NCBI GenBank assembly: GCA_025839675.1
Contig: CP104013.1
Coordinates: forward strand, 3,750,001-3,782,000
DNA from: Candidatus Lokiarchaeum ossiferum
GTDB lineage: Archaea > Asgardarchaeota > Lokiarchaeia > Sigyniarchaeales > Promethearchaeaceae
Direction of reading: 5' to 3'
DNA: 32,000 nt
Positions within the stretch are counted from its first letter, which is position 1; each line of letters opens with the position of its first letter. The translations under genes and the position numbers were made by a program. A model generated the notes under the pieces. The model was not told the DNA's origin. It ran no database searches and saw only the letters and a program-made list of their open reading frames with translations. This document shows positions 1 to 26,879 of the stretch, piece by piece.

Positions 1-74
1 GGTACATCTCCATCAAAGATATATTCTGGAGTCACTCGTTTTAATACCGTTATTTTAACTCGATGTCGTGTCAT
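1..74 (-). CDS. TIGR04076-family small protein, paralog 1 (5' end only; the gene runs off the left window edge)
   Basis: Absent from the ORF track because it has no stop inside the window. The reverse complement starts with ATG (72..74) and reads MTRHRVKITVLKRVTPEYIFDGDVP. That is 19/25 identical to the N-terminus of the 136..465 product (MTHSRVKITVLKRVDPSIIFNGDVP). Seven codon differences are synonymous. Confidence 0.7.
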   Translation of the reverse strand, partial: MTRHRVKITVLKRVTPEYIFDGDV

Positions 75-99
75 TGTTTTTCACTTCAATTTGTTTTTC

Positions 100-111
100 A
101 AAAAAAAAAAA
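100..111 (-). terminator. Oligo-T tract (T12 on the minus strand) downstream of the 136..465 gene
   Basis: An A12 run on the + strand lies 25 nt past the TAA at 136..138. Archaeal transcription commonly terminates at oligo-T tracts. Confidence 0.3.
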
Positions 112-135
112 GTTGCATTTTCTATATATTTTTAA

Positions 136-465
136 TTACTCATCTAATCGTTCTAGTTTAAAAGAAACTGGTCGAATTCCATCTGAACAGCATGCAATAG
201 CGGTCCCTCGTTCAAGCCATGGATAGAAATCTCCTCCTCCTCGGATGGTAAGATATTCTTTGAAGAGATCCATCCATGCCCAATTGCAAAATCCTAGAGG
301 ACATCGACTGGAATTATCAGCATCGACAATAAATTCTTGACCATCTTCAAGGGCTGTGCATATTTCATATTTTTCACCATTTGGCCGAGAGGGTACATCT
401 CCATTAAAAATTATTGATGGATCGACTCGTTTCAATACGGTGATTTTTACACGCGAGTGTGTCAT
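136..465 (-). CDS. TIGR04076-family small Cys-containing protein, paralog 2
   Basis: 109-aa ORF with ATG at 463..465. Motifs as I recall them for this family are VKITVLKR, QEFIVD, GFCNWAWMD, GGG and IACCSDGIRPVSFKLERL. It is clearly paralogous to 1363..1674 and 1..74. Confidence 0.85.
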   Translation of the reverse strand: MTHSRVKITVLKRVDPSIIFNGDVPSRPNGEKYEICTALEDGQEFIVDADNSSRCPLGFCNWAWMDLFKEYLTIRGGGDFYPWLERGTAIACCSDGIRPVSFKLERLDE

Positions 466-494
466 TTTTATCAGTTTTATTTTCTATCAAAAAA

Positions 495-1355
495 TTAAAT
501 GCCTTCTTTCATTGAATCATAAAATTCTCTTGAAGGATGGGTAAGATTACCCGCTATTCTGGTGTCATGTAAACAGCAAGAACAATATGGATCACCTTCC
601 ATTATTGTGTGCTCCATGGTTAACCGGAAAGCAGGGTTACTATTATTATATCCCTGAAAATCTCCATAACACGCCACTAAGTATTTTAATTCCTGATCCG
701 GTAAATCTTGGATAGCATCTTTCCACATACATGTGTCTTTGCGTTGAGGAAACTTTCCATCTTGGATTTTTCCGTGCAATATCACCCACCCAATGTTTGG
801 TTTTTTTTTGTTACTTTGGATTGTTGCTGATCGAAATTCTTCCAAGCTTTTGATAGGGGGATTTTGAGGAGCAAAGCTTTTGACGTATTCTGTTACAAAT
901 TCTTTGTAGAGGGAAATTCCTCTCACTCGATCTGTACTCTCAATTATTGACTGGACATTATAATAGCGAAATATCAGATAGGAACGTATATTGGCTCGAT
1001 TTGTGGTTTCAACTTCTGTGTTCAGGTCCATAATCCTAACAGGTATGTTCAAAATTTCTAAAGTCCGCCTTATTACTTGTTCTACGAGAAAAGGAAAATT
1101 CTCTAAAACTGGAAATTTCTGAAAAATTGGGGTTATATTGTAGGAGATTATTGATTTATCCATTGAAATTTTATCAAGTAAACTATTAACATATTTTTCT
1201 TTAAGAATGGGACTTTTTTTTCCCAAAAACTGAATTAAATAGGCAACACGGTTGAGAATATTCTCTTGCAGTTGATTTAATACATTTATTTTCTTCGAAT
1301 CAGCTAAATTTGAAATACTGTAGCTCCCAGTTTTTATTGTGCTCATAGTTATCAT
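495..1355 (-). CDS. Hypothetical protein with a C-terminal L-2-amino-thiazoline-4-carboxylic acid (ATC) hydrolase-like domain
   Basis: The C-terminus LVACYGDFQGYNNSNPAFRLTMEHTIMEGDPYCSCCLHD follows the same C..D...np.i.l.R/T..T.M.G...C(C) pattern as the 2299..2805 product. The track start at 1409 would overlap the upstream gene by 47 nt in another frame. The ATG at 1355 lies 8 nt after that gene's stop, so I chose it. The ATG at 1346 is also possible. Confidence 0.65.
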   Translation of the reverse strand: MITMSTIKTGSYSISNLADSKKINVLNQLQENILNRVAYLIQFLGKKSPILKEKYVNSLLDKISMDKSIISYNITPIFQKFPVLENFPFLVEQVIRRTLEILNIPVRIMDLNTEVETTNRANIRSYLIFRYYNVQSIIESTDRVRGISLYKEFVTEYVKSFAPQNPPIKSLEEFRSATIQSNKKKPNIGWVILHGKIQDGKFPQRKDTCMWKDAIQDLPDQELKYLVACYGDFQGYNNSNPAFRLTMEHTIMEGDPYCSCCLHDTRIAGNLTHPSREFYDSMKEGI

Positions 1356-1362
1356 CAGAATG

Positions 1363-1674
1363 TTAAGTTGAAATTCTTTCGACTTTAAAACAAACGGGTC
1401 TAATTCCATCGGGACAGGCGGTATAGATCATGTCCTTTCCTGTCCATGTAGGAAATCCACCACCGCATTGCAAGATATTTACACTCTTATATAAACCATA
1501 CCAAGCATGATGGCAAAAGTCTTTTGGCATATCTCCCGATTCATCGACCAAAAACTCGCTTCCTTCCTCAAGCCAACAAATCGGAATGGGTCGTCCGTCT
1601 GCGCGAATGAAATCCTCGCCAATAACATCCTTCGGAGAGAATTTTTTCACAACGGTTATTTTTATTTGACTCAT
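1363..1674 (-). CDS. TIGR04076-family small Cys-containing protein, paralog 3
   Basis: 103-aa ORF with ATG at 1672..1674. Motifs are IKITVVKK, SEFLVDE, DFCHHAWYG, CGGG and YTACPDGIRPVCFKVERI. A weak SD-like AGGAAG lies upstream. Confidence 0.85.
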   Translation of the reverse strand: MSQIKITVVKKFSPKDVIGEDFIRADGRPIPICWLEEGSEFLVDESGDMPKDFCHHAWYGLYKSVNILQCGGGFPTWTGKDMIYTACPDGIRPVCFKVERIST

Positions 1675-1809
1675 ATTGATATTCTTCCTATCCTAACGGT
1701 ATTTGGAATTTTTCGATAATTTACGAAATATTCAGTACTGTCGTGAAGATGATTATAGGAAGGAAAGAAAACTGTCTATAAAAATGTTTTGAAAAATTAA
1801 CATTATTTT

Positions 1810-1820
1810 CGAACGTATCA
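1810..1820. promoter_or_regulatory. Candidate operator half: the 11-mer CGAACGTATCA shared with 2873..2883
   Basis: The same 11-mer occurs in both intergenic or promoter regions of the TIGR04076/ATC-like cluster. ATATAGAT also occurs in both (1821..1828 and 2850..2857). Confidence 0.25.
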
Positions 1821-1886
1821 ATATAGATGTTAATTGTGATCAATCAAAAATTTTTATTTTTACTTTTTTTGGAAATTAAGGAAGGA

Positions 1887-2261
1887 TCAGAAACGATGGG
1901 CATTTTTACTTACGATTTTCCATCCAGATTTTGTTTTCAACAACAAAATATAGTTAATTTCTCCGATTTTTGTCTCATCTACTGAGTGCCAAGCAATTTT
2001 GGCGAAAGCTGCCGTTCCGGTATATTCTACTGAAATGATATCAGCAGTGAAAGAAGGACCGGAAGAATGCTTGATTGATTTAATCACATCCTCATGAGAA
2101 GCACTTAGCATTTTATAGGGTTCTTGGGTATCTGGATCAATGATCCACCGATGTCCGTCAGTATCCCATGCAGATCGAACTAAATTGAAATTCATGGTTT
2201 GGACTGCTGTAATGTAGTTTCGTATTACTTTCTTTATATCATCGATTTCATTCTCGTTCAT
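1887..2261 (-). CDS. NTF2-like / SnoaL-like (putative lumazine-binding-type) small protein
   Basis: 124-aa ORF. The pattern IKKVIRNYITAV...W...YILLLKTKSGWKIVS is typical of NTF2-fold cone proteins. SD-like GGGAGATGG lies 5-12 nt upstream of ATG 2261. Confidence 0.55.
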   Translation of the reverse strand: MNENEIDDIKKVIRNYITAVQTMNFNLVRSAWDTDGHRWIIDPDTQEPYKMLSASHEDVIKSIKHSSGPSFTADIISVEYTGTAAFAKIAWHSVDETKIGEINYILLLKTKSGWKIVSKNAHRF

Positions 2262-2298
2262 TTTCCATCTCCCATCTCATCATTTTCATGAAAAAAAA

Positions 2299-2805
2299 TC
2301 ACACATTGTTTTTTCGCAATTGATATGTGTGGTCACAACAGTCGTGGCCTTGCATCAGTGTTTTTGTCCTTGTAAACTCAATTTTTGGATTAAAACCCTC
2401 GACGATTGCATAATCACTCATGCAATAGAACTGGTATCCCCACTTTTCCAAGCCGAGTTCTCTCGCCATATCTGCAAAAGGACATTTTGTGACATGCATT
2501 TGCGTAATCTCCCCTCGTGTTGTCACATCATACTCAATTCCACCAGGTGCGCACATTTCTACCCACAATTTTTGGACAAGGGCACCAACATCAGGAGTGG
2601 ATACATTTTTGCTGATATTTTGCCAAAAGCCCAAATTGTCTTCTCTTACATGAGAATCTATGATATCATCGACAGCATCACCTAAATTTGTCTTAATTTT
2701 CTGAAGAAGTTCGATTTTATCTTGAAAAAAAGATTTTCGGGCTGATTTCTTCCAGTTTTCCAATTGATCTATTCGTTCTTTTAGTTCGTTGTAGGTTTCT
2801 TCCAT
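2299..2805 (-). CDS. ATC hydrolase-family protein
   Basis: CPFADMARELGLEKWGYQFYCMSDYAIVEGFNPKIEFTRTKTLMQGHDCCDHTY matches my recollection of the family's C-terminal signature. The track start at 2820 is GTG. ATG at 2803..2805 (MEETYNEL) is preferred. Confidence 0.7.
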   Translation of the reverse strand: MEETYNELKERIDQLENWKKSARKSFFQDKIELLQKIKTNLGDAVDDIIDSHVREDNLGFWQNISKNVSTPDVGALVQKLWVEMCAPGGIEYDVTTRGEITQMHVTKCPFADMARELGLEKWGYQFYCMSDYAIVEGFNPKIEFTRTKTLMQGHDCCDHTYQLRKNNV

Positions 2806-2826
2806 TGTAAATTCACACACATTTCT

Positions 2827-2851
2827 ATGTATTCCGAATATTTAAATACAT
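2827..2851. promoter_or_regulatory. Inverted repeat ATGTATT-N11-AATACAT in the divergent promoter region
   Basis: 7-bp perfect arms (2827..2833 and 2845..2851) enclose a palindromic TATTTAAATA core. The repeat sits between the ATC-hydrolase-like gene (-) and the ArsR-type regulator (+). It could be an operator and/or TATA elements. Confidence 0.25.
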
Positions 2852-2872
2852 ATAGATCGTTTATATACTCAC

Positions 2873-2883
2873 CGAACGTATCA
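2873..2883. promoter_or_regulatory. Candidate operator half: the 11-mer CGAACGTATCA shared with 1810..1820
   Basis: Exact 11-nt identity with 1810..1820. It lies about 40 nt upstream of the ArsR-family gene start. Confidence 0.25.
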
Positions 2884-2922
2884 TAACGGTTGATTTTTTT
2901 TAACTTCCCTTTGGATGATTTT

Positions 2923-3651
2923 ATGACCCCTAAGAAAGATAAATCTGCCCCTCCACTGTCTATAAGTGAAATTCTTCACAGCAAGACACGCTTTCTCATT
3001 TATTCGTTACTTTCAGTATATAAAGAATTGAGCCTTTCTCAATTAAGTAAGGAATTGAAGCGAAATAAATCCACTATCTCCCATCATTTAAAAAAAATGA
3101 TCGCCTCAGGCTTAGTTACTCTATCTAAAGAGGAACAATCTCGATCCAATATCAAGTCGAAGTTTTATTGTTTGGTTGACGATGCGGATGATTTAATTGG
3201 CTTCATGCATCCTGATGATGAACGCATGAAGTTGAAACAAAAGTTAAAAAATGGAACACTGAGTTTTGAAGAACGATGTCAATTGGAAGCAGAAAAATTA
3301 CGAGATCACATCGGTTTTACTCAAACTAAAATAGAACTCTACCAAAAATGGGAAAAATATATGCTTTCGTTAGAGAAACGAATTTTGAGCTCCAATCCTA
3401 AAGTAGCAGAAACGGCTTTAACAGAATTGCAAATATTTGGGAAACGATGGTCTTCAATTTCATTCTATTCTGAGACCTTAGCCAAGGAATTCAATACGCG
3501 TTTTTCAAAATTATATCAAGAAATGGAAGGGTTAATCAAACAAGAAGTATCAGAAACCGGAAAAGGAGCTAGTGAACGTCCTTACGTGGCAAGTATGACT
3601 TTGTTTCCAGTCAAAATTGTTTTAGACCAGATGCAAAAAGAAGAAAACTAA
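2923..3651 (+). CDS. ArsR-family winged-helix transcriptional regulator with a long C-terminal helical extension
   Basis: LSLSQLSKELKRNKSTISHHLKKMIASGLV is a classic ArsR/HTH_20 recognition-helix signature. The track start at 2890 is TTG. ATG at 2923 (MTPKKDK) is preferred. Confidence 0.7.
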   Translation: MTPKKDKSAPPLSISEILHSKTRFLIYSLLSVYKELSLSQLSKELKRNKSTISHHLKKMIASGLVTLSKEEQSRSNIKSKFYCLVDDADDLIGFMHPDDERMKLKQKLKNGTLSFEERCQLEAEKLRDHIGFTQTKIELYQKWEKYMLSLEKRILSSNPKVAETALTELQIFGKRWSSISFYSETLAKEFNTRFSKLYQEMEGLIKQEVSETGKGASERPYVASMTLFPVKIVLDQMQKEEN

Positions 3652-3694
3652 AAAATTATTTATAAAATGCTTGTTCTCCATCTTCTTTTTTTCA

Positions 3695-4288
3695 TTATTT
3701 GAGATACGAACGAATAATTTCAAGAAATTTCTGGATGCTGGGATGTTGGATGTCAATATCGAATAATTTGAATAGATTGAGCCATTTCCCTACCTCATCA
3801 CTCCCTACTAGTAAAGCTTCAAAGTCTTCCTTGGTTCTTATAAAACGAATAAATCCATCTTGCAATTCTTCATTTCTTACTGTAGATCCAAATATTTCAT
3901 TAACTCGATAAATTAATCGATAATTTCTTCTCATTGGGGTGAGATGGTTTGATTTATAGCGTAAAACTATATAGTTTTCAATGTCTCCATTGTTTTCAAT
4001 CGTCTCCATAGGAGATTTGAAGATATTCGATGGAAAATCAACTTCATTTCGGATAATTTCATCATAAAAATAGGAATAAATTCGATAATCTTTTTCGTAC
4101 ATGGCTTCAAAATCATGAAGTGATGAAAAAGTTAGTAGTAATGTATTTTGGGGGGTTATTATCGCTGTCTCAGGCGGAATGGGGGGATAATCCATCAAAT
4201 TTTTTAGAATTGTAGTCAAAATGCTTATCGTTTCTAAATTCTCATCGGATTTTGAGATTACAGAAATTTCGAGAAACGGTTTTTCCAC
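3695..4288 (-). CDS. Hypothetical protein, tandem paralog A (unknown family)
   Basis: 197 aa and roughly half identical by eye to the 4385..4987 product. Shared blocks are MEKPFLEIS, NYIVLRY.SN.L.PMRRNYRLI..VNEIFG, QDG..RF..TKED and IDI.HP.IQKF.EII. The GTG start at 4286..4288 is supported by the conserved N-terminus. It is also supported by SD-like GGGAGTGA (4295..4302) 6 nt upstream. Confidence 0.75.
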   Translation of the reverse strand: MEKPFLEISVISKSDENLETISILTTILKNLMDYPPIPPETAIITPQNTLLLTFSSLHDFEAMYEKDYRIYSYFYDEIIRNEVDFPSNIFKSPMETIENNGDIENYIVLRYKSNHLTPMRRNYRLIYRVNEIFGSTVRNEELQDGFIRFIRTKEDFEALLVGSDEVGKWLNLFKLFDIDIQHPSIQKFLEIIRSYLK

Positions 4289-4384: not shown

Positions 4385-4987
4385 TCATTTGAGAGATTGA
4401 ATTATTTCCATGAATTTTTGAATAGTAGGGTGGGATATATCTATATTGAATAGCTGAAAAACTTCTGTCCATTGAGCAACTTCATCACAACCGATAAGCA
4501 TGCCCTCCCAATCTTCTTTAGTTTTTAAAAATCGTAAGTATCCATCTTGAATCTCTTCATTGGTAATTTTAAATCCAAATATTTCATTTACTTTATCTAT
4601 CAGTCGATAATTACGGCGCATCGGGGCGAGATTATTTGATCTATAACGAAGGACGATGTAATTTTGATAATAGTCCTCATCCTTAATCGTAGTATTCTTC
4701 AATTTTTGTTGCTCTTTGAAGAAATTTTCATCAAGATCTATATGTCTTCGGAGAATTTCATCATAAAGATATTCGTATACTTCATACGTGTGGCTATATG
4801 CTGCATCAAAATCTGCTAATGATTGGAAAGTTACTAAAAGGGATGGCTTGGATGTAAATTCTATTGATTCTGGAGTTTTCGTCCATATTTCAATCAAACC
4901 TTCTTTGATTCTCTGTAATAATTGAATATCATCCAAATTTGTATCACTTTTTGAAGCAATAGAGATTTCTAAAAAAGGTTTTTCCAT
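4385..4987 (-). CDS. Hypothetical protein, tandem paralog B (unknown family)
   Basis: The track ORF starts at GTG 5023. ATG at 4985..4987 gives MEKPFLEIS, colinear with paralog A, so I chose it. Confidence 0.75.
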   Translation of the reverse strand: MEKPFLEISIASKSDTNLDDIQLLQRIKEGLIEIWTKTPESIEFTSKPSLLVTFQSLADFDAAYSHTYEVYEYLYDEILRRHIDLDENFFKEQQKLKNTTIKDEDYYQNYIVLRYRSNNLAPMRRNYRLIDKVNEIFGFKITNEEIQDGYLRFLKTKEDWEGMLIGCDEVAQWTEVFQLFNIDISHPTIQKFMEIIQSLK

Positions 4988-5053
4988 GTTATCCCACAAT
5001 TTCTTAAGTAACAGTTTGTCCACAATTTTTAAGAAATTTAACTTTTATAATAT

Positions 5054-6001
5054 ATGAAAGGTATTTCTCAAAATCTTGTTCTTCGCTCCTACTTGCTGGC
5101 AACGCTTACTTTTGTTATATGGGGTACTTCATTTGCTATTGGTAAATTTGTGACTCCCAGTCCTCTTTCTCCTTTCAATATCACATTTTTCAGGACAGTT
5201 ATTGCTGCTCTCACTTTATTTATAATTATCGCTTTGAAAGGTCAAATAAAGGCATGGTTTGTTGTTTTTCGGCAAGAATTTCTGAAGTATCTTATTATTG
5301 GAGTATTTTTCTATGGGTGTGGGTTTATTTTGGAATATTGGGCCCTTGCCCGAACTGAAGCCTCGAATCAAGCGATGTTGAGCAATACCATGACATTTTG
5401 GGTGGTCTTGATCAATTTTTTTGTTTTTAAGCAACAAATAAAGAAAAATTTTATAGTGGGGCTAATTTTAGCGTTTATTGGCGTTATACTCATTCTGCTG
5501 ACCGACGAATTTAACTTTTCTTCTGCTACCATTATTGGAGATGTAGGAACTCTAATTGCCTACATCATTTGGGGGATGTACAGTGCATTCACAGCAAAAA
5601 TGAATGAAAAATATAATCCTCTTTTCTCGACATTGTCTATTTTCATATCTTCTTTGATTTTATTACTTCCGATGGCGCTGATACAAGGAGGATTTCAAGA
5701 AATTACACAAATGTCATCTATCAATTGGCTTGCTTTACTCTATTTAGGCATAATATGTGGTGGAATCGCCTTTTGGATATACAATATCGCCTTATCTAAT
5801 GAACAGGTTTCATCGGAATATATTGTCATCTTTTCTCTACTTAATCCCATAATTGGGGTTGTAACTGGTATTATTTTGCTTGGAGAAGGGCTGGTTATAC
5901 GGGAAATAATTGGTATCATAATCATTCTTTCAGCCATTGTACTTGCAAACTGTCAACCAAATAATATGGACTCAATTGAAATAATCTCAGCTAAATTATA
6001 G
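5054..6001 (+). CDS. EamA/DMT-superfamily transporter
   Basis: 315 aa with about ten hydrophobic segments in two similar halves. G-rich helix ends (GTSFAIGKF, GIICGGIAFWIYN) are typical of EamA domains. Confidence 0.85.
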   Translation: MKGISQNLVLRSYLLATLTFVIWGTSFAIGKFVTPSPLSPFNITFFRTVIAALTLFIIIALKGQIKAWFVVFRQEFLKYLIIGVFFYGCGFILEYWALARTEASNQAMLSNTMTFWVVLINFFVFKQQIKKNFIVGLILAFIGVILILLTDEFNFSSATIIGDVGTLIAYIIWGMYSAFTAKMNEKYNPLFSTLSIFISSLILLLPMALIQGGFQEITQMSSINWLALLYLGIICGGIAFWIYNIALSNEQVSSEYIVIFSLLNPIIGVVTGIILLGEGLVIREIIGIIIILSAIVLANCQPNNMDSIEIISAKL

Positions 6002-6051
6002 GATATTTGCCAATCTTAAACTTTTTAAATTTTTAGATTGAAATTCATATA

Positions 6052-7500
6052 ATGCAGATAAAAAAGGGATTTTTTACATTGGAAATGATTTTTTTAGGGT
6101 TATTAGGCGTAATTTTGTTTGTAGTAATGGAATTTAATTATCTTTTGTTTCACTCATTTATTGAGATTTTTGCGATTGTGATTTTTTTTACCACCTTTTT
6201 GATCACTGTTATATCTCGCAAGATTGTGGAAAGCTCTCTTTTACTCCTTATTGGAATTTCAAGTATTTCTTATGCCTTTTTAGATTTATTGCATCTGTTA
6301 ACTTACCAAGGGATGGGGGTTTTTATTGCAATTGATACAAATATTCCCACTCAATTTTGGATTGCGGCTCGTTATTTTCAAAGTATTTCGTTTCTAATTG
6401 GTCTTCTTTTTAGTCGGAAGCACGTCAACTCAGTATTAGTGCTTGCAATTAATATGGTTCTTGTTACTTTTATTTTGTTATCGATTTTTACATTTTCTAT
6501 CTTTCCTGATTGCTACGTTGAGGGGGATGGATTAACCTTATTTAAAATTATAAGTGAATATATAATTTCGGGGTTCTATGGCCTATCTATTTATTTATTA
6601 TTTCGAAAGAGAAAAAAAATTGATTCCCACATCTATATATTTTTCCAAACCGCTTTAGTGTTGAACATAATTTCCGAACTTCTATTTTCATTCTATACTG
6701 ATGTTTATGGGCTGACGAATTTCTTTGGCCATGTGTTGAAGTTCTTTGCATGTTATTGTTTTATGAAATCGATCATTATGACTTTTTTAAAAAATCCGGT
6801 AAATTTACTGGTCTTTAGCTTAAAAAAACATGAGCGAGAACTTAAACAAGAACTCCTTTCCAAAGATATTCTAATAAAAGATATCCATCACCGTGTGAAA
6901 AATAACTTACAAATGATTTCAAGCCTAATTATTTTACAATCCCATGAAATCCAAGATGAAGAAACATTAACAGTTTTCCAAGAGTTACAAGATAGAATTC
7001 AGTCGTTTTCTTTATTGCACCGACATATTTATCAATCTCCTGATTTATCACAAATTTCCCTTGAATCTTATCTAACACAATTAGTCCAATATTTGAAAGA
7101 ATCGATTAATGTGAAAAAAGAGATTTTAATGGAAATTGAAATCGCAGATGTGATGGTTTCTACTAAAATTGCAATCAATTGTGCTCTCATAATTACGGAG
7201 CTGTATTCAAATGCAATGAAACATGCGTTTAATCACCAAGAATCAGGAAAAATATCAATTTGCATATCTCAACTCGAATCCAATCATCTAGAATTGACTT
7301 TCAAAGATAATGGAATGACGAAAATTGCCTTGGATTCTCTCTATAACTCAAAAAATTTGGGTTTCCAGTTGGTATTGGCTGGAGTGGAACAATTAAGAGG
7401 AAAATTAGCTCTTGTTGTAAACGATGGATTACAAGTTATCATCAAATTTCCTTTAGATGGAAAAAACAGCAAAAATCTTTCTAACCATGTTGATTTTTAA
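6052..7500 (+). CDS. Membrane-embedded sensor histidine kinase (HisKA_2-type H box plus HATPase_c)
   Basis: The N-terminal ~250 aa hold 7-8 hydrophobic helices (MASE-like sensor). They are followed directly by IKDIHHRVKNNLQMISSLI (H box), ELYSNAMKHAF (N box) and NLGFQLV (G box-like). No PAS/GAF domain and no response regulator were seen nearby. Confidence 0.85.
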   Translation: MQIKKGFFTLEMIFLGLLGVILFVVMEFNYLLFHSFIEIFAIVIFFTTFLITVISRKIVESSLLLLIGISSISYAFLDLLHLLTYQGMGVFIAIDTNIPTQFWIAARYFQSISFLIGLLFSRKHVNSVLVLAINMVLVTFILLSIFTFSIFPDCYVEGDGLTLFKIISEYIISGFYGLSIYLLFRKRKKIDSHIYIFFQTALVLNIISELLFSFYTDVYGLTNFFGHVLKFFACYCFMKSIIMTFLKNPVNLLVFSLKKHERELKQELLSKDILIKDIHHRVKNNLQMISSLIILQSHEIQDEETLTVFQELQDRIQSFSLLHRHIYQSPDLSQISLESYLTQLVQYLKESINVKKEILMEIEIADVMVSTKIAINCALIITELYSNAMKHAFNHQESGKISICISQLESNHLELTFKDNGMTKIALDSLYNSKNLGFQLVLAGVEQLRGKLALVVNDGLQVIIKFPLDGKNSKNLSNHVDF

Positions 7501-7553
7501 AACTTTAAGGGTAATTCCGTGTCTGTCTGTTTATTAACAGAATCGATCCTGAT

Positions 7554-7561
7554 AAAAAAAA
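7554..7561 (-). terminator. Oligo-T tract (T8 on the minus strand) immediately after the cobN stop
   Basis: An A8 run on the + strand lies 7 nt beyond the stop at 7568..7570. Confidence 0.3.
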
Positions 7562-7567
7562 GGAGAT

Positions 7568-10500
7568 TTAATATTGTTCGACCCAATTTTCAAGTTCCAA
7601 ATACAATCTCTTTAAATTTTCAAGTTGTTCAGAAGTAGCTTCCCAATAGGAACGACGGTGTGCTTGGAGAAAATCTTTAATCATGGACATCATTGCAAAG
7701 TGATTATTTTCAACCAATGCAGATTTAATTTCTTCATTGTCAATATATTGTGAATAATACCGATTCCAAATTTGGCTATTCACACTATCAGTTGTAGCAG
7801 ATAAGCCAAGTACATTTTCAAGTCGTTCAGCAACTTTTTGCCCTCCATGGAAAGGATGTGCCAACATACCTTTTATCCATTTGGGATTTAATGATCTGGT
7901 AATGGAACCTTCTAGTACAGTAGATTGAAGAGTATCTAACCTGATTTCTTTTGAAGTAGTGTCGGCAATCAGAGTAGGTATTTTTTTTTTTTGCACTTCT
8001 TCAGCGGATCGCGAGAGACCTCCTGCAAATTCATAATAGTGATCAAGATCAGTAATATGGTATTCGGTTGAATCTCTTACTTGACTGATGACGTCCAACT
8101 TCTTTAGTGAATGAATGAAAGCTTTTTTTTGTTGGGACACAACTTGGTTTTTTTGGTAAGTAAAGCTCATCGAATTGATATAATCATCTACTAATTCGGT
8201 TTCTTCCGACCAAGTTCCCGCAGAAATCATAGTGGTCAAGTTTGTATTATATTTCCCTGGAGCAGGACCAAAAACACGGGCAATTGGACATCCTGTTCCA
8301 TCCAATTTTTGTTCTAAAAACAACTTTCTAACAAAATTAAAATCAGTTGGCTCATCTAAATGGGCTACCAATTCGAAAGCTTCATTAAGTAGATTGACAA
8401 GGTTTGGAAACGTATCACGAAAAATTCCACAAATTGTAACCAGAACATTGATCCTAGGATGCGTCATTTCATCCCTTGGAATAACTTCCAATTCGGTGGT
8501 CCATATTGAGGATTTTTTTACTGGTTTAACTCCAAGATAATGTAAAATTTGAGAAATTGTTTCCCCGCCAGTTTTCATTGTCTCAAATGCCCAAAGAACC
8601 ACACTAGTCGATTCTGGGTATGTGTGATTACTTTGATAATAATTGGATAAAATTTTACCCGTTATCTCCTTCCCTCGACGAAATGCCGTTGTACTTGGAA
8701 TCAATCGAGGATCAAATCCATAAGAATTCCTGCCTGTGGGATAAATTGAAGGATCTCGAATCGGGTCACCGCCTAAACCCGGTTCTATAAACTCGCCGCT
8801 CAATCCCCGCAAGAGATTCTTCATTTCACAAGATTGCCAATACTGATCTAAAAACTCACCCAACCATCGAATTAGGGGGAAATCAATGTCAGTATCAGAT
8901 ACTGAAAGATGATACTGATGATTTGAATAGAATTTTGTCAAGAGATCTTGAATTTTATTTAGCAGAATTGTATTTTGCACCTTTTCATCACTATCTATTG
9001 CTTCTTGCGGAAATATTTCGTGAGAAATACTCCCCGAATGTAATAGGATTTGTGCAATCATATCGCTTAACTCTTCAAAATTTAAATCTTGGCCCAAAAT
9101 ATGTAATCCCATAGGTATAACTTGTGTTTTATATTGATATATTTGCTCTTCAAGAGCACTTATAGATGAATATTCAATGGGAAGATGGGCAATTGATGTT
9201 TTGATTTCTTCTTCTAAGATCTGTAGTTTTTCTAAAGAAGCACTATCTCCTGAATTTTGCTGCATGGATGACAATTCATGGTATTCTGCAATAAATTTTT
9301 CAATCTGAGCAAATTCTTGATATAATCCAGAAGGTTTGAATGAAGGTCCGGCATGATTAATAACTACTGCGTTTGATCGACGTTTTGCGATTGCTGCTTC
9401 ACTGGTATTTGTGATGTGATAATAATATAAATGGGGAAGCGTGCCGATTAAATGAATTCCATAATCATCGCTGCATCCGAGATTTTGTTTCCCTGGCATG
9501 AATTCTAGAGTTCCATGAGTTCCAAAATGAATGAGTGCGTTGATTTTCAAGAGATGTTCAAGGTAATAGTAAAGAGCTAAATACTGATGGTGAGGTGGGA
9601 TTTTTTGATTATGATAATCTTCAGCATCACCTTTGACGAGTGTGCGTGCTGGTTGCAAGGCGATTATTATATTTCCAAAAATTAGAATTGGCAATTGTAT
9701 ATGATTCTCGATAATATTTATATTTCCAGGCGGTGCACCCCAATAATCTGTAATTTCTTGTTGAAATTGGAGAGGAAGTTGTTGAAAATATTTGAGATAG
9801 GTGCCAATTGGAAGTTTTACTCCAAAGAAATGCGATCTATTTAGGTACTTGGCCTTATTGATTGCTCCATTCTGAAAAAAGAGATCACTTAAATGGATAT
9901 TCTCCAAAAATGATGTTGTAGAATATCCTTCTTTAATAAGGGTTGGAACTAAGTTGGTTAATGATGCAGAGACATCTAGATATGCTGCATTCCCCAGTTT
10001 ATCTTCTCCAGGAGGATAATTATAGATCATCACCGCTACTTTTTTTTCTGCATTGGCTAATTTTCGTAGTTTTAGCCATTTTTTTACACGTGCACCTATC
10101 AATTCGATATTTGGAAGGAGTGGTATAATTTTTAGGATCTCATTATGAATCAAATCTGAATATCCATGTGAATACATGCATCCCACAGTCATCATTTCAA
10201 TTTTTCCATCCAATTCTGGCATGACTACTGATATTATTTGATTAATCGGAATAGTTCCTTGATCTGATTCAAGATAGTCATTCAAGAGAAGATCAAATTG
10301 AATAACAGGTGTTATATGGGGAACATTCATTTCTCGATACAAATCAAGCGTTATTTTCGAATCTCCACCAAGTGGTCCTCCATTTAACTGGAAATATTGG
10401 AAATTGAGAACAATATCAACAATACATTGGCGTTTTCTAAAAAAATAGTTACGATGTGCTTCCACGTTCTGTAAAACATCTGAAAATACCGGAATAATAT

Positions 10501-11356
10501 TATATTCCTCAAAGCGAATAAAAAATTCTCGAATAATTGGTAAAGATTGTTCAAAATATAAACCACCATAAAAAAACAAACCAATAGTTTGCTTATTAGC
10601 ATCTAAAGGATGTTTTTTAAGAAATTGAGGTAATGAATCGTAGTATTGGTTTTCAATAGGATGATAAATCCCTTGTTCGGGTATGAGAGCAGGAAGAGAA
10701 ACTTTGAGATTTGAATATCCCATATAAGATTTGAGAAGAAAGAGAATTAAGTTCTTATGATTTATGGGTATACCCGCTAATCCATTTATCCAATATTGTC
10801 GAAAATAAACCCAATTTCGAATATCTCGTAATGCCTTGAAGGGAAATAGTTTTGAAAACACTCCGAGAATTGCATCCATTTTTTTACCTTTTCTTACAGC
10901 ATCTGTTATATCGGGAAATTCATCAAAATTGAGTTCTTGGTCTTTTTTTGAAGAATTACTTGCCGGAATCATTTTCCCTCGGAAATGACCTAATTTCGTC
11001 AGTCGCATTAATCGCGGGCTTCCTGCAACTATCGTTATAACTTGCATATTTTCATAGCGTTCTGGATCAGAAGTTTCCATACGGGAAAGTTCTTCTTCAA
11101 GAATTTCTACCGCCAAACAATAACCCCTGATATCTAGTAAAAGAACATCTGAATTTGAAATAGCAGAACGAAATTTGTCTTGGGATATTTTTTCTTTATT
11201 GATGTCTTGAACCATATAAATATATAAAGAAATATTGTATCCGTATGTTGCGTTAATCTCAGCAAGGCCTTCGGTCAACCATTGTAATGAGACTGAAGCT
11301 GTTATCAAAGAAATTACGGGTTTAAAACTGGATTCACTTGTAGAAATCTGAGTCAT
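7568..11356 (-). CDS. cobN: Class I chelatase large subunit, CobN/ChlH/BchH family
   Basis: About 1260 aa. LIHFGTHGTLEFMPGKQ matches the conserved HxGxHGxxEWLPGK region of CobN/BchH, and size and colinearity fit throughout. The track start (11416) adds 20 aa read through an AT-rich TATA-like stretch. ATG at 11354..11356 (MTQISTS), preceded by AGGAAGGA, is preferred. Confidence 0.9.
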   Translation of the reverse strand: MTQISTSESSFKPVISLITASVSLQWLTEGLAEINATYGYNISLYIYMVQDINKEKISQDKFRSAISNSDVLLLDIRGYCLAVEILEEELSRMETSDPERYENMQVITIVAGSPRLMRLTKLGHFRGKMIPASNSSKKDQELNFDEFPDITDAVRKGKKMDAILGVFSKLFPFKALRDIRNWVYFRQYWINGLAGIPINHKNLILFLLKSYMGYSNLKVSLPALIPEQGIYHPIENQYYDSLPQFLKKHPLDANKQTIGLFFYGGLYFEQSLPIIREFFIRFEEYNIIPVFSDVLQNVEAHRNYFFRKRQCIVDIVLNFQYFQLNGGPLGGDSKITLDLYREMNVPHITPVIQFDLLLNDYLESDQGTIPINQIISVVMPELDGKIEMMTVGCMYSHGYSDLIHNEILKIIPLLPNIELIGARVKKWLKLRKLANAEKKVAVMIYNYPPGEDKLGNAAYLDVSASLTNLVPTLIKEGYSTTSFLENIHLSDLFFQNGAINKAKYLNRSHFFGVKLPIGTYLKYFQQLPLQFQQEITDYWGAPPGNINIIENHIQLPILIFGNIIIALQPARTLVKGDAEDYHNQKIPPHHQYLALYYYLEHLLKINALIHFGTHGTLEFMPGKQNLGCSDDYGIHLIGTLPHLYYYHITNTSEAAIAKRRSNAVVINHAGPSFKPSGLYQEFAQIEKFIAEYHELSSMQQNSGDSASLEKLQILEEEIKTSIAHLPIEYSSISALEEQIYQYKTQVIPMGLHILGQDLNFEELSDMIAQILLHSGSISHEIFPQEAIDSDEKVQNTILLNKIQDLLTKFYSNHQYHLSVSDTDIDFPLIRWLGEFLDQYWQSCEMKNLLRGLSGEFIEPGLGGDPIRDPSIYPTGRNSYGFDPRLIPSTTAFRRGKEITGKILSNYYQSNHTYPESTSVVLWAFETMKTGGETISQILHYLGVKPVKKSSIWTTELEVIPRDEMTHPRINVLVTICGIFRDTFPNLVNLLNEAFELVAHLDEPTDFNFVRKLFLEQKLDGTGCPIARVFGPAPGKYNTNLTTMISAGTWSEETELVDDYINSMSFTYQKNQVVSQQKKAFIHSLKKLDVISQVRDSTEYHITDLDHYYEFAGGLSRSAEEVQKKKIPTLIADTTSKEIRLDTLQSTVLEGSITRSLNPKWIKGMLAHPFHGGQKVAERLENVLGLSATTDSVNSQIWNRYYSQYIDNEEIKSALVENNHFAMMSMIKDFLQAHRRSYWEATSEQLENLKRLYLELENWVEQY

Positions 11357-11443
11357 GGATGGATTCCTTCCTATTAATATATATAAATTTAAAAAATGAA
11401 TATCTCTTGAGACCATAGATATTTTAAATTGGTGTAGTTATAT

Positions 11444-13633
11444 TCAAACTGGAACTTTAAGTAATCCTTGCTCTTTTAAGATAAATTCCAACTGAGAAAC
11501 TGTGAGATCAGATAAATGATAATATGCAGCGTTTGCCAATTCCGAAAAATCCTTGCAAAGTTGTAAGGGTACCTCCGAATGTTCTGTATCTATGACGAGG
11601 GTTTCAATTTCATCTGCTGCTAATTTTTCCGCGAGGTAAAGAACATCTGAAAGTGCATCGCGAAAGAACACATTCGCTCGAGCGTCTGTGATGAGCACCA
11701 GGAGAGGGATAAAACCTGTTTTCTTCCGTTTTTCTTCATCAATCACTTTGAAAGCTTCTATTATTCCCGCAGCCAAGGGTGTTGTTCCACCCGTAGGAAT
11801 TTCATGAAGTAACTTGTACGCTAAATCCACACTACGAGTCGGAGGGAGAATAATTTCAGCCTTTTCTTTTCGAAAAATAATAAGACAGACTTTATCGCGA
11901 TTAATGTAATTATTTTGCAGAATACGATAAATAGCACCTTTCACAGATGCCATTTGGTTTTCAACACCCATTGAAGCTGAAGCATCAACACAAAAGATGA
12001 TAAGGTGACTTGATTTCCCAATTCTTTTTTTTGTATGGATGTTTTCATCTTTAATTACTAATTTATTCCCATTTTTGATGAACTCACGATTTTCTGGGTT
12101 CAACGCAGCAGAGTTTAATGTTTCTGTCAACGAGATATCAGTGGAAGTGGGGAGATTAATTTGCTGTGAAGAAACACCTCCGACATACTTACCTTTACGG
12201 TCTGCGGTAGGATGAGTGATTTTGGAACCAGAAACTTTTAGCATCTTTCGAATTCGTTTTTGGTGAAGTATTTGAGGACTTTGAATATCATAATTTACGC
12301 CGAACACTTGATCAGGAGTAATAATTTGTGAAAAATCAGGAGAGCCATTTTCTGTCACGTTCTGTTCTGAATTTTGCAAGAGTTCTTCTTCTGATTCAGA
12401 TACTGCTTCAGACTCGGATTCAGCTTCAGCTTCAGGTTCAGATTCAGCTTCATCTTCAGGTTCAGATTCAGCTTCAGGTTCAGATTCAGCTTCAGGTTCA
12501 GATTCAGCTTCAGGTTCAGACTCATTTTTAATCTCTGGTTCTTCAGATTGTGCAGAATCTGGCTCTTCTTCTTCGAGTTGTGTAGAATCTCCTTTTTCTT
12601 GAAATTCTTTTATCAACCTATCAACAAAATCTTCATCAAAAGCATCATCTTCAAAAGGAAGACGGTGCAATCTATGCGTAATAGCCAACTTAGTGGCTAT
12701 TTTTATATCTTGAGGTAAAACTTTCAAACGATTTTTATACGCTGCTAATGTTTTTGCCGTTTCTGCGATGGTGATATCTGCTCGATGTCCATCAGTTTTG
12801 AAATGGATACAAATTTGTGCAATGAGAGCCAGTAAGTTATCAGAAATTTCTGTTAAATGAAGGATGCTCCGTCCATGAATAATCTGTTTCTGTAGTTTTT
12901 TTTGCAGAGTATCAAATTGAGCATGGAATTTCTCTGGATCTTCACGATATGCCGCAGAATATTTCATTATCTTCACACGTTGCTTTATATCTGCAATTCT
13001 TTCAATTGTTGTGCTCAATCCAAAACGATCCAACAACTGTGGGCGAAGATTTCCTTCTTCAGGATTCATTGTTCCAATTAAAATGAAGTGGCTTGGATGA
13101 TGAAGGCTGATTCCTTCTCTTTCAATTACATTGATACCCATTGCAGCACTATCAAGTAGAATATCAGCAACATTGTCTGCAAGCAAATTGATTTCATCAA
13201 TATAGAGAATGTTTCGATTCGCTGTAGCCAAAATTCCTGGTTCCAAAGATTTAATTCCTTGGGTGAGGGCTTTCTTAATATCAATGGTACCAACCACCCG
13301 ATCTTCGGTGGAATTAATGGGTAGATTGATTACTTGCATCTTTTTGTATACAATATCTTGATCGGTGAAACTATTGGTGCGAATCTTTTCTTGACAGACA
13401 TGACAAGATTCTTTGGGATCATCTGGATTACAGTTGAATTTACAATCTTTAATCGTTTTAATATCTGGTAATAGGTCAGATAACGCCCGAACTGCAGTAC
13501 TTTTTGCAGATCCCTTCATTCCTTTAATAAGAATTCCGCCAATCTTTGGGTTGATTGCATTCAAAATCAACCCCAATTTCATCATTTCTTGACCAATTAG
13601 GGCCGTGAAGGGATAAGGTTTGTAATGTGTCAT
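11444..13633 (-). CDS. Fused ChlI/BchI-type AAA+ ATPase and ChlD/BchD-type vWA subunit of a class I chelatase
   Basis: N-terminal motifs are [12 protein letters not shown], Walker [10 protein letters not shown], Walker [11 protein letters not shown] and [16 protein letters not shown]. The middle is an acidic (ESEPEA)n linker. The C-terminus is a vWA domain with MIDAS DASASM. The track start at 13642 is TTG. ATG at 13631..13633 (MTHYKPYPF) is preferred. Confidence 0.9.
12392..12523 (-). repeat. In-frame 18-nt tandem repeat encoding the acidic ESEPEA linker
   Basis: TTCAGATTCAGCTTCAGG occurs as three perfect consecutive copies (12461..12478, 12479..12496, 12497..12514). Degenerate copies lie on both sides. 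Confidence 0.9.
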
Positions 13634-13934
13634 GCACTTCAAATCTTTGTAATTCTCTACAATCGAAAATAAAATAATTTATAACAATAATCTCAATTAA
13701 TAATATTTTCGAAATGAGTATTACTGATAAAAATGACCCAAATCATAAAAAAATTTCCAATGAATTCAAGGCACTTTGGGCATCAATGAAAAAGCGGTGA
13801 AAATGATTATCCTAAGTGGAAAAATTTTCCCTTAGTTGAAAAAAAAACACATTTAAGTTTATATAGAAAAACTCATTTCGTTAAAGTAGGTTTAAAACAT
13901 ACACCTAGCAAAAAAAATACACTAAGTGAGAAGA

Positions 13935-24468: not shown

Positions 24469-25791
24469 TTAACTTGCTTCTAATTCAGTTTGATAGTCGG
24501 TAAGGAGATCTGCTTCAGCTTCAACCACTGGTGTTTCTGAAGATTCTTCTGCTATTGACTCATTTCCATAAGATTCGCCATAGTGCATCATGGTGGTGAA
24601 TTTAATCAAGATAAAATAGACTATGATAGAAATAGCCGGACTGATGATGAAAATGGCCACAATCGGGGTAAATTCCCCGATTATTCCCCAAATTATTAAT
24701 CCTACAGGATTGAGTGATTTAATAATAGTAAACATTGAGGCAAACACTCTTCCTTGGAGTTCTTTTGGTATTGTTACTTGAAGTACAGACATCAGTTGGG
24801 TGTCAATAAAGGCAAGATCAATTCCCAAAATTGCACAAGCGATATAAAACAACCACCAAGTGCCTTGCGGAACTAAGGCTAAACCAATTAATACAACTGA
24901 TAGGAACATACCGCTAGTAATTACTGATTTCATCGTTGATTTTCGCTTGGACGACATCAATAAGATAGAGCCACCTATCATTCCAACTTGAAACAAGACT
25001 TCAACCCAACTATAGTTGGTCACTGTGCCTTCATGATGTCCTAAGATTAAAAGAGGAAACAATGAGAAAATGGGAACCACAATAAAATTGGCGGTTGCAA
25101 ACATAAAAAATACGGATGTCAAACCAGATTCTTTGATATAACTTAACCCTTCTCCAAATTCTTTTTTGAATGAAATTTTATCACCCTTTTCATGATTTGT
25201 GACTGATGGAATTCGAATTAGGAATAAAATAACAGCTGTTGGAATAAAAGTAAATACATCTAACCAATATATTTGTTGAATCGTGAATGTTGATACAGCT
25301 ATTGCTCCAATTGCTGGACTTGCAATGTTGATTAACGAATTGAAGATTTGATTTATTGAATTGATTTTTTTGATTTTTTTTTCTGGAACCATTAAAGGTG
25401 TTAGACTTACTGAAACTGGGTTCTGAAAACCTTGACATGTGCCCCTTATCCCTAATAGGACCAAGATGTGCCACAATTCTGCTACATTAAGTTGAAATAA
25501 GATAATTAAAACAAATGTTGCTAATGCTTGGGTAGCATCAGAAATAATTAAGATCAAGTTTTTATTAAATTTGTCCGCAATCACTCCTGAAAATGGCGAT
25601 ACGATAATCATGGGAACAATAGATGCAATACTTGCAATCGAAAGAATCAAACTACTTTCAGTTGATTCAGCGAGGTACCAAATAACAGCAAAAGAAACAA
25701 TCATTGACCCGATCATTGAAATAAATTGGGTAATGAAAATGATAATAAATCCTTGGAAGGATTTTTCGGAAACTTCGTTGTAGGAGATCAT
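24469..25791 (-). CDS. MFS transporter (EntS/MFS_3-like) with an acidic C-terminal tail
   Basis: About 12 hydrophobic helices. PFSGVIADKFNKN resembles MFS motif A. The tail is ESSETPVVEAEADLLTDYQTELEAS. Confidence 0.85.
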   Translation of the reverse strand: MISYNEVSEKSFQGFIIIFITQFISMIGSMIVSFAVIWYLAESTESSLILSIASIASIVPMIIVSPFSGVIADKFNKNLILIISDATQALATFVLIILFQLNVAELWHILVLLGIRGTCQGFQNPVSVSLTPLMVPEKKIKKINSINQIFNSLINIASPAIGAIAVSTFTIQQIYWLDVFTFIPTAVILFLIRIPSVTNHEKGDKISFKKEFGEGLSYIKESGLTSVFFMFATANFIVVPIFSLFPLLILGHHEGTVTNYSWVEVLFQVGMIGGSILLMSSKRKSTMKSVITSGMFLSVVLIGLALVPQGTWWLFYIACAILGIDLAFIDTQLMSVLQVTIPKELQGRVFASMFTIIKSLNPVGLIIWGIIGEFTPIVAIFIISPAISIIVYFILIKFTTMMHYGESYGNESIAEESSETPVVEAEADLLTDYQTELEAS

Positions 25792-26027
25792 AGATAATCA
25801 ATCATTTTTTTTTTACTACTATGTAATTTTAGTGTGTATTGCTAATAAACCTTTGTGATAAATGTGTATGTTTTTTGCATACTTCTTTAGAAATATCATT
25901 AAATGATTCTCAAATCTTGTAGAATTGAGATCAAATTATTACTTTTGTGTGTAATATAAATATGTCAAAATTGAAATTGAACAAAATCAAAAAAGAGGTA
26001 GCATATTTGATCTGTCGGAAAAATAAA

Positions 26028-26879
26028 TTATAAATCTTCGACAGAATAGAATTTGATCCATCGCTTGATATTTTTCTCTCGGCATTGTTGATATTTCTTT
26101 TCAATCATTGGATAAATTTCTTGAAAATTTTTACTTGTTTCCAAGGAATCAAGTTTTAGTGAATTTAGAACACTAGTTCTCATTCCTGTGAGATAATCTA
26201 AATAATGCTGCATATTTTCATACTTGATTGGTTTTCCATGGCCTGGTATATACCATTCTGCTTTGAGATCGATTATTTTTTTTAGTTGTGTGATCCAACC
26301 ATCTGGGTTACTCCATGTTCCTGTTGAATTGGGGATTCTGTTTTCCCAAAGTAAATCTGCTGCTATGACCACTTTATCCTCTGGAATATAAATAAAAGAT
26401 GAACCAGGAGTATGTCCTCCTGCGAATACAAAATTGATTTCTATTGAACCATTATGAATTGTAAGTTGCTTTGAAATTCCAAGATCAGGTATTCTGACTT
26501 TCATATTCTGGATTTCTTCTGCTCTCTCTGGAAATTTATTGATGTATTTCTTTTTATTTTCCTCAATTTTGGCTGGAATTTCAGATTCCATCATTTTTTG
26601 CAAGATTGATGAACTGATAATGGTTGTATCGAAGTATTCCTGCATGCCACCAATATGATCTGTGTGAAAATGGGTCAAAAAGAGATACTTAATTGGTAAC
26701 TTATATTTTTCTTCAACTGCTTGCCGAAAAGCTTTACCTTCCGTAGGAAGTAAGTTGGCATCAACAATTATTGCGTAGTTCTTACATAGGATTGCTGCTT
26801 GATTTACTTGTTCGTAAAAGTTGCAATTAATATCTGATATCACCACATGTTCAGAAATCTGATTTAATTTAATGACCAT
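26028..26879 (-). CDS. MBL-fold metallo-hydrolase
   Basis: LTHFHTDHIGG (HxHxDH), GGHTPGS and PGHG. SD-like GAGGAG lies 5-10 nt upstream of ATG 26879. Confidence 0.85.
   Translation of the reverse strand: MVIKLNQISEHVVISDINCNFYEQVNQAAILCKNYAIIVDANLLPTEGKAFRQAVEEKYKLPIKYLFLTHFHTDHIGGMQEYFDTTIISSSILQKMMESEIPAKIEENKKKYINKFPERAEEIQNMKVRIPDLGISKQLTIHNGSIEINFVFAGGHTPGSSFIYIPEDKVVIAADLLWENRIPNSTGTWSNPDGWITQLKKIIDLKAEWYIPGHGKPIKYENMQHYLDYLTGMRTSVLNSLKLDSLETSKNFQEIYPMIEKKYQQCREKNIKRWIKFYSVEDL

Follow-up and report, generated by a model that had tools for sequence, protein, structure and literature searches.

We analysed 32,000 nucleotides of the genome of Candidatus Lokiarchaeum ossiferum (contig CP104013.1, positions 3,750,001 to 3,782,000 of the forward strand; hereafter the window, ~34% G+C), whose first 3,651 nucleotides carry a compact cluster of genes for small cysteine-containing proteins. 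Read along the minus strand, the cluster begins with a short protein of the ATC_hydrolase family (ATC-short, 168 residues, 2299..2805), followed by an NTF2-like protein (124 residues, 1887..2261), a member of the family TIGR04076 (paralog A, 103 residues, 1363..1674), a longer protein with an ATC_hydrolase-like carboxy-terminus (ATC-long, 286 residues, 495..1355), and two further members of TIGR04076. The first of these is complete (paralog B, 109 residues, 136..465), and of the second (paralog C) the first 24 codons (1..74, translation MTRHRVKITVLKRVTPEYIFDGDV) are present before the gene runs past the left edge of the window. A gene for an ArsR-type winged-helix regulator (2890..3651, plus strand) is divergent from ATC-short. 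An earlier note made from the letters of this DNA had placed the minus-strand open reading frames at these coordinates, which we confirm; its gaps of 29 and 61 nt between the genes are also right, while the gap between paralog A and ATC-long is 7 nt and not 8 nt. Judged from gene order across genomes, TIGR04076 and ATC-long form a conserved gene pair.

The extent of the cluster could be judged from two related loci. The first 6 kb of the window are 97.7% identical to the syntenic locus of a Ca. Lokiarchaeum ossiferum chromosome (CP163304.1, locus L006), and a more diverged metagenomic relative (L001) encodes proteins that are 71-93% identical to those of the window. The regulator is divergent in all three. 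Downstream of paralog C, both L006 and L001 carry genes for an MFS transporter and an MBL-fold hydrolase on the same strand, and from this synteny we conclude that the operon ends with these two genes and is severed by the left edge of the window. In comparison with L001, all six window genes gave ratios of nonsynonymous to synonymous substitution rates (dN/dS) of 0.02-0.17, showing purifying selection. An oligo-T run of ~12 T, read directly in the sequence, lies between paralogs B and C (100..111, minus strand), and behind other cluster genes there are runs of six to nine T. Such tracts may act as archaeal oligo-T terminators, or in the case of 100..111 as an attenuator, or may simply be AT-rich spacers.

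The two complete TIGR04076 proteins exceed the NCBIfam cut-off of 33 bits by a wide margin (61.7 bits for paralog B and 63.0 bits for paralog A). The fragment of paralog C shares 75% identity with the beginning of paralog B, and the complete gene in L006 encodes 107 residues that match the TIGR04076 hidden Markov model (HMM) at 5e-32. The earlier note had counted seven synonymous and six non-synonymous differences between two of the paralogs, which we reproduce, over 24 codons (11 identical) rather than 25, and had taken them for old duplicates kept under selection. This view holds: the three proteins are only 35-56% identical to each other and their synonymous sites are saturated, and they must therefore be old duplicates, with purifying selection evident against L001. 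Paralog A is the most constrained gene of the cluster (dN/dS 0.020, against 0.054 for paralog B) and belongs to the most conserved type, with 64-81% identity across Asgard phyla for most matches.

In an alignment of 127 archaeal and bacterial TIGR04076 sequences, 13 of them bacterial, the conserved cysteine positions proposed previously are kept almost without exception. Cys33, Cys54, Cys87 and Asp89 are present in 126-127 sequences, and with Gly90, Pro93 and Val94 included the NCBIfam signature, three cysteines with the motif CxDG(I/L)RPV, is found in 125-127; the AW and DG..PV motifs are likewise conserved. Our proteins thus share the universal signature of three cysteines and one aspartate. 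They differ from the bacterial members that we examined in the tandem triplication and in the pairing with ATC-long, which were seen here and not there. The family as a whole consists of uncharacterised small cysteine proteins from anaerobic bacteria and archaea. The AlphaFold (AF2) model of paralog A has a predicted local distance difference test score (pLDDT) of 94.4, and a Foldseek search with it returned no fold match in the PDB at E<=0.001. Sequence searches of the PDB, with a single sequence and with a profile, found no relevant relatives, and no Pfam model matches. We also considered whether TIGR04076 might be a relative of the cysteine domain of the ATC-like proteins, and rejected this on an hhalign probability of 0.1%.

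Both ATC-like proteins score above the Pfam gathering cut-off of 28.1 bits for ATC_hydrolase (PF14196), with 79.2 bits for ATC-short and 32.5 bits for ATC-long. ATC-short matches nearly the whole model and is 96% identical to an annotated Ca. Lokiarchaeum ossiferum protein, while ATC-long matches model positions 74-143 only, through its residues 190-260. The two proteins have in common the motif C-x19-C-x2-D-x24/25-C(x)C-x(1-2)-H, much as had been noted before. In ATC-short it comprises the invariant columns Cys113, Cys133, Asp136, Cys161/Cys162 and His164 (numbered on the 173-residue open reading frame that starts at 2820), and in ATC-long it reads C209-x19-C229-x2-D232-x25-C258-x-C260-x2-H263, all alignment invariants within the carboxy-terminal ~70 residues. 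When the two are aligned with hhalign, ~63 carboxy-terminal residues are matched and no others. Both proteins share with the PF14196 type the GFNP/RTKTL-type carboxy-terminal core and the C...C..D...C(C).H pattern, and ATC-long departs from it in ~190 unrelated amino-terminal residues. The start codon of ATC-long is probably either ATG 1355 or ATG 1346, the longest open reading frame reaching 1409; the conserved amino-terminus of the family alignment indicates that ATG 1346 could be the true start.

ATC-long defines a family of ~290-residue proteins. We collected 42 homologues, of which all those named to a taxon are from Loki, Heimdall or other Asgard archaea, so on present sequences the family is Asgard-specific and separate from PF14196 proper. 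A search of 1.84 billion proteins with the ATC-long profile gave 332 representative clusters at 50% identity, and a metagenome scan with the same profile returned six loci. The genes often stand in tandem arrays of 3-8 diverged paralogs. In one metagenomic protein of 727 residues (P0190), residues 27-379 are an MFS_1 transporter and residues 448-725 a complete ATC-long domain; this may be a real fusion or an artefact of read-through. Many bacterial short ATC_hydrolases carry twin-arginine-like signal peptides (P0082, P0095, P0110, P0111, P0114, P0115, P0121, P0123 and P0127), as does a Bacteroides TIGR04076 protein (L079, 9773-10153); signals of this type suggest, as far as sequence can indicate, proteins that fold around a cofactor before export.

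A possible fold for ATC-long is suggested by its AF2 model (pLDDT 87.8). The top PDB matches in Foldseek were H-NOX proteins, Bet3/TRAPPC3 proteins, including TRAPPC3 from Thorarchaeota (7yh3), and the phenol-sensor domain of PoxR. These matches are consistent but weak, with E values of 0.007-0.4, probabilities of up to 0.97 and TM-scores of 0.3-0.55. They agree with two published studies. A profile search tied PF14196 to the V4R and HNOB domains through a common three-cysteine cluster (Galperin et al. 2018, PMC5847659), and Thor-TRAPPC3 and PoxR were found to bind zinc through cysteines beside the ligand cavity, with ligand binding proposed for the Asgard V4R/TRAPP-like proteins (Tran et al. 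2024, PMC10933270). All the best PDB matches of ATC-long come from this group of H-NOX, V4R (the PoxR and MopR sensor domains) and TRAPPC3-Bet3 proteins, which is marked by a two-layer alpha/beta fold and by a cysteine-ligated structural zinc site that ties the sheet to a helix. ATC-long nevertheless differs from the group in being ~100 residues larger and in the spacing of its cysteines, and the similarity is weak. Nor is there any sign that it binds heme, phenol or lipid, and it has no link to a GTPase or to TRAPP partners. For ATC-short, sequence searches of the PDB with a single sequence and with a profile found no solved relative. By analogy with PoxR and Thor-TRAPPC3, a metal site in the ATC-like proteins is plausible. 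Because in these solved fold relatives the cysteine cluster is a structural zinc site, we favour zinc over the iron-sulfur centre that the earlier note had offered as its alternative to a simple metal site; for an iron-sulfur or redox centre we found no direct support.

We then asked how general the association of the two families is. Our TIGR04076-centred sample comprised 80 loci from GTDB species genomes, mostly Asgard with 13 bacterial, in which the genes were scanned with HMMs. An ATC-like gene stands beside TIGR04076 in four independent contexts (the lineage of the window, L033, L057 and L060) out of ~78 species-level loci. Viewed from the other side the association is much stronger: of 11 informative ATC-long clusters, nine have TIGR04076 within them or at their head (those of the window lineage, L033, L057, L060, L088, L089, L090, L091 and L096), the clusters without it being L087 and L092. 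The TIGR04076 copies that adjoin ATC-like genes are spread over at least four separate clades of a neighbour-joining tree, so the pairing is not one inherited arrangement, and together with the count of 9 in 11 this leads us to regard it as real. Among ~1,400 genes called in the TIGR04076-centred loci, no ATC-long was matched away from TIGR04076. We also looked for TIGR04076 beside short ATC_hydrolases elsewhere, and found none in four other contexts (one from Heimdall, one metagenome contig from JGI and two bacterial), where the neighbours were GNAT, glyoxalase, APH and ABC-transporter genes. The repeated pairing proposed earlier is therefore conserved for ATC-long; it is not a general property of TIGR04076, and it was not seen for the short ATC_hydrolases in those four contexts. 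The papers that we found to mention either family do not describe the TIGR04076/ATC pairing, the ATC-long family or its arrays; what appears new here is the long form restricted to Asgard archaea, together with its arrays and the small cysteine protein that regularly accompanies it.

It might be argued that the adjacency has no meaning and that lineage-specific paralog expansions came together by chance. Asgard genomes are rich in paralog families, and the contexts of both TIGR04076 and the short ATC_hydrolases do vary widely. We consider this explanation very improbable given the 9 of 11 informative ATC-long clusters spread over several TIGR04076 clades, the lack of ATC-long genes away from TIGR04076 in the ~1,400 genes, the tight spacing, the strong purifying selection and an operator-like motif shared by the promoter regions of the cluster, which is described below.

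A more specific proposal, which builds on the two-component, cysteine-ligated system of the earlier note, is that TIGR04076 binds the ATC-like proteins in a two-component complex with a redox-active metal or iron-sulfur centre, working as an electron-transfer or metalloenzyme pair under ArsR control. The conserved adjacency with its 7 and 29 nt spacings would fit, as would the invariant three cysteines and aspartate of TIGR04076 and the invariant three to four cysteines, aspartate and histidine of the ATC-like proteins. The twin-arginine-type signals on bacterial short ATC_hydrolases and on the Bacteroides TIGR04076 protein are what one expects of exported cofactor-bearing proteins, and a paper on Bilophila speculated that TIGR04076 might have a redox or iron-cluster function. 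The copy ratio of TIGR04076 to ATC-long, on the other hand, ranges from 3:1 here to 1:8 in L060, which argues against a fixed 1:1 complex, and the idea of a one-to-one pair has to be given up. Furthermore, most TIGR04076 genes have no ATC-like neighbour, the short ATC_hydrolases in the four other contexts have no TIGR04076 neighbour, and the cysteine cluster is a structural zinc site in the solved PoxR and Thor-TRAPPC3. Classic iron-sulfur spacing is absent and no electron-transfer partners are encoded nearby. We therefore regard a two-component redox complex as unlikely.

The other neighbours of TIGR04076 give a further indication of function. Tandem arrays are frequent, with 29 loci containing two to four copies. 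Within two genes of TIGR04076, an MBL-fold hydrolase with the HxHxDH motif occurs most often (22 loci, and Lactamase_B_2 in four Firmicutes loci), followed by NTF2-like Lumazine_bd_2 proteins (~10 loci) and MFS transporters (at least seven). Winged helix-turn-helix (wHTH) regulators also recur, of the ArsR/HTH_20 type in archaea and of the HxlR type in seven Firmicutes loci. The NTF2-like gene of the window was correctly named in the earlier note, scoring 28.7 bits against Lumazine_bd_2 (PF12893) where the cut-off is 22.1, and it has a weak PDB match to 3blz, an NTF2-like protein whose function is not known. In the three plasmid contexts that we inspected, TIGR04076 is followed once, on a Clostridium plasmid, by genes for an SMR efflux pump with a MarR regulator, and twice lies near genes for GNAT proteins and class I S-adenosylmethionine-dependent methyltransferases. 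These plasmid loci are L103, L104 and L105 (5001-5318, Clostridium tagluense plasmid NZ_CP086157.1). One RefSeq annotation of TIGR04076 carries the Gene Ontology term 'S-adenosylmethionine metabolic process' (evidence code IEA).

Several other arrangements were seen along the way. In gut Firmicutes (L073, L077 and L080-L084), TIGR04076 is preceded by two to three tandem proteins of 278-329 residues that have Gly-rich and CxxC motifs and no Pfam match, and is followed by MBL_2 or a small open reading frame (160-190 residues), a divergent HxlR regulator and further open reading frames. In seven Asgard species (L007, L011, L013, L015, L021, L028 and L037), orthologues of paralog A lie between the genes for a ~484-residue protein and a 750-residue EF-2-like GTPase, with neither MBL nor ATC-like neighbours, in what looks from the gene content like a housekeeping context.

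With its divergent wHTH regulator, MFS exporter, MBL hydrolase and NTF2-like protein, the cluster resembles the detoxification and efflux operons controlled by ArsR, MarR or HxlR regulators, and bacterial TIGR04076 genes adjoin just such regulators, either HxlR or MarR with an SMR pump. It differs from these operons in its two families of cysteine proteins, which are not known as their components, and in the long carboxy-terminal domain of the regulator, which has no family assignment. The same neighbours could be read in terms of metal homeostasis, with TIGR04076 as a metallochaperone or buffer that loads zinc or iron into the MBL and ATC-like proteins, and with the regulator as an ArsR/SmtB-type sensor. 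Both recurrent partners would be expected to be metalloproteins, from the HxHxDH motif of the MBL hydrolase and the cysteine motif of the ATC-like proteins; the regulator is a member of the ArsR family, and TIGR04076 is conserved very strongly (dN/dS 0.02). We find this reading quite improbable, since the regulator falls under the metalloregulator cut-off and by inspection has none of the usual Cys/His sensing motifs, the cluster encodes no metal transporter, the MFS transporter not being a typical metal pump, and neighbours of the NTF2-like, GNAT and efflux-pump kinds speak for organic ligands.

Both families are, much as had been stated before, catalogued yet functionally blank. The name of the ATC_hydrolase family comes from a characterised enzyme, the L-ATC hydrolase. 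Taken at face value, the name would suggest a sulfur-compound pathway in which the ATC-like proteins open thiazoline or amidine rings like AtcB of Pseudomonas, in the salvage or synthesis of a cysteine-derived metabolite, with TIGR04076 as the carrier of sulfur or thiols. In favour of this, the proteins score above the PF14196 cut-off, and a PF14196 gene, tolI, is found within the tolyporphin biosynthetic cluster. In Heimdall-type contigs, genes for a ubiquitin-like protein and a ThiF-type E1 lie directly upstream, on the same strand, of arrays of ATC-long and TIGR04076 (L087 1318-3031, L088 913-2847 and L089 1-1189), which could be a link to a sulfur carrier or a protein modifier. This link was seen in one group of related genomes only. 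The partners of the L-ATC hydrolase pathway, a racemase or an N-carbamoyl-amino-acid amidohydrolase (AtcA/AtcC), are absent from the window cluster and the syntenic loci, and no such gene of the AtcA or AtcC type occurs in any of our locus tables. ATC-long moreover retains only the carboxy-terminal ~70 residues of the domain, and arrays of 5-8 diverged paralogs would suit the binding of varied ligands better than a single pathway step. A sulfur-compound pathway, with TIGR04076 in the role of carrier, therefore strikes us as highly improbable.

The regulator and the promoter regions supply the remaining evidence. The divergent gene is indeed of the ArsR type (HTH_5, PF01022, 40.6 bits against a cut-off of 22; HTH_20, 33.6 bits), and scores 38.1 bits against the NCBIfam model HTH_metalloreg (NF033788), below its cut-off of 55. 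By inspection, its sequence contains neither a CVC motif nor an alpha-5 His/Asp motif. The longest open reading frame has 253 residues, and the orthologues in L001 and L006 start at the equivalent of ATG 2923, giving 242-244 residues, of which a carboxy-terminal extension of ~150 residues is without Cys motifs. An 11-mer, TGATACGTTCG, occurs on the coding strand at 1810..1820 and 2873..2883, that is, once in each promoter-bearing spacer, and these are its only two occurrences in the window, where ~0.2 would be expected. The first copy lies in the 212 nt intergenic region upstream of paralog A (1675..1886, minus strand), which contains a candidate internal promoter with a TATA-like TTTTTATA; L006 and L001 both retain the motif as well as the TATA-like box and the leader downstream of it. 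The second copy (minus strand) belongs to the promoter region between the divergent genes, where a TATATAAA box follows 8 nt downstream, and L001 has TAATACGTTCG at the position of this copy.

Copies of the 11-mer are found at 9923 and 10983 in L006 and at 8634 and 9867 in L001. In L001 the rest of the spacer between the NTF2-like and TIGR04076 genes has diverged, and the motif is still at both places, upstream of TATA-like boxes. Its retention in an otherwise diverged spacer suggests that TGATACGTTCG is a candidate operator and that the cluster consists of two co-regulated transcription units. We infer that the ArsR-type protein may bind it. ArsR-type control, as assumed in the earlier note, is thus plausible from the presence of TGATACGTTCG in both promoter regions and its conservation in L001, and a metalloregulator in the strict sense is not indicated by the family match. 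A scan with a bacterial sigma-70 model predicted 17 sites where 14 were expected, and it found no terminators, a bacterial model being uninformative for an archaeon.

Taken together, we propose, with a probability of about 0.4, that the cluster is a co-regulated module with two promoters, whose products bind, process and export a small molecule. The two ATC-like proteins would be ligand-binding and possibly catalytic members of the H-NOX/V4R/Bet3 fold group, and a zinc ion bound by the Cys/Asp/His motif would give the ligand cavity its shape, on the pattern of PoxR and Thor-TRAPPC3. For TIGR04076 we propose a small metalloprotein whose site is made of three cysteines and an aspartate, and which would assist both the ATC-long paralogs and the MBL hydrolase as a common accessory rather than as a 1:1 subunit. 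Binding or processing of the molecule would fall to the NTF2-like protein and the MBL hydrolase, and the MFS transporter would carry the ligand or its product out. Until the ligand is present, the ArsR-type protein would use the shared motif to repress the two promoters. The ligand would be a small molecule, probably hydrophobic or thiol-reactive. The gene content, its conservation, the pairing and the shared motif are shown by the sequences themselves. We infer the metal, the ligand, the interactions and the target of the regulator from the family assignments, the extent of the operon, the constraint on its genes, the conserved pairing and the neighbours of TIGR04076, and also from the plasmid contexts, the fusion of an MFS transporter to ATC-long, the fold matches, the literature and the shared 11-mer.

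Some observations weigh on the other side. The fusion to an MFS transporter is known from one metagenomic protein only, which might be a read-through artefact; the only characterised member of PF14196 is an enzyme and not a binding protein; the themes among the neighbours (MBL, GNAT, NTF2, efflux pump and wHTH regulator) are common and unspecific; and orthologues of paralog A also occur in housekeeping contexts, for example beside the EF-2-like gene in seven loci.

What the pairing means may extend beyond this cluster. TIGR04076 is widespread in anaerobes and combines a confident predicted fold without a PDB match with the lack of a Pfam model, and it now gains concrete, testable partners in ATC-long, the MBL hydrolase and the MFS transporter. 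If the models are correct, with ATC-long the V4R/H-NOX/Bet3-like fold group has also undergone an expansion found in Asgard archaea alone, and this is a group discussed in the literature as the root of the Bet3 subunits of TRAPP. It is a speculative and rather improbable suggestion that ATC-long and TIGR04076 together make up an undescribed Asgard-specific system, in which tandem arrays of diverged cavity proteins of the H-NOX/V4R/Bet3 kind would serve as carriers of lipid or small-molecule cargo, a mini-metalloprotein of new fold would contribute its universal Cys3-Asp site, and the whole would be coupled to membrane transporters, as in the MFS fusion. If true, this could be a prokaryotic ligand-shuttling function and a source of part of the eukaryotic trafficking toolkit, a recruitment that is conceivable because the fold group includes the ancestor of TRAPPC3/Bet3. 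With the 11-mer, an archaeal ArsR-type regulator gains a candidate operator. Few Asgard archaea are in culture, and as Ca. Lokiarchaeum ossiferum is among them, these predictions are testable by transcriptomics and by work on the recombinant proteins.

A search of positions 1..3700 for riboswitches or other known RNAs gave no Rfam family at E<=1. We rejected a role for the cluster as a defence system, as PADLOC returned no matches for the five structural genes and only generic wHTH matches for the regulator. Elsewhere in the window, positions 5054-13642 encode an EamA transporter, a MASE3-HisKA_2 histidine kinase, a 1282-residue CobN-type chelatase subunit and a 732-residue open reading frame that, from its sequence, resembles a ChlI/ChlD-type fusion with an acidic SEPEAE repeat linker. 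The CobN/ChlID chelatase (7.5-13.6 kb) was considered as a member of the cluster and rejected, since it is not nearby in the more diverged L001, and it is probably unrelated. On the minus strand at 24469-26879 there is a second MBL-fold hydrolase with an apparent MFS-type transporter. This pair is not a displaced copy of the end of the operon, its MBL protein being 20-23% identical to the operon MBL proteins of L006 and L001 and its MFS protein giving only a weak local match to the operon MFS. Next to the regulator, two tandem paralogs of 197 and 212 residues (3695-4288 and 4385-5023, minus strand), for which there is no Pfam or NCBIfam match, are kept in the same place in both L001 and L006.

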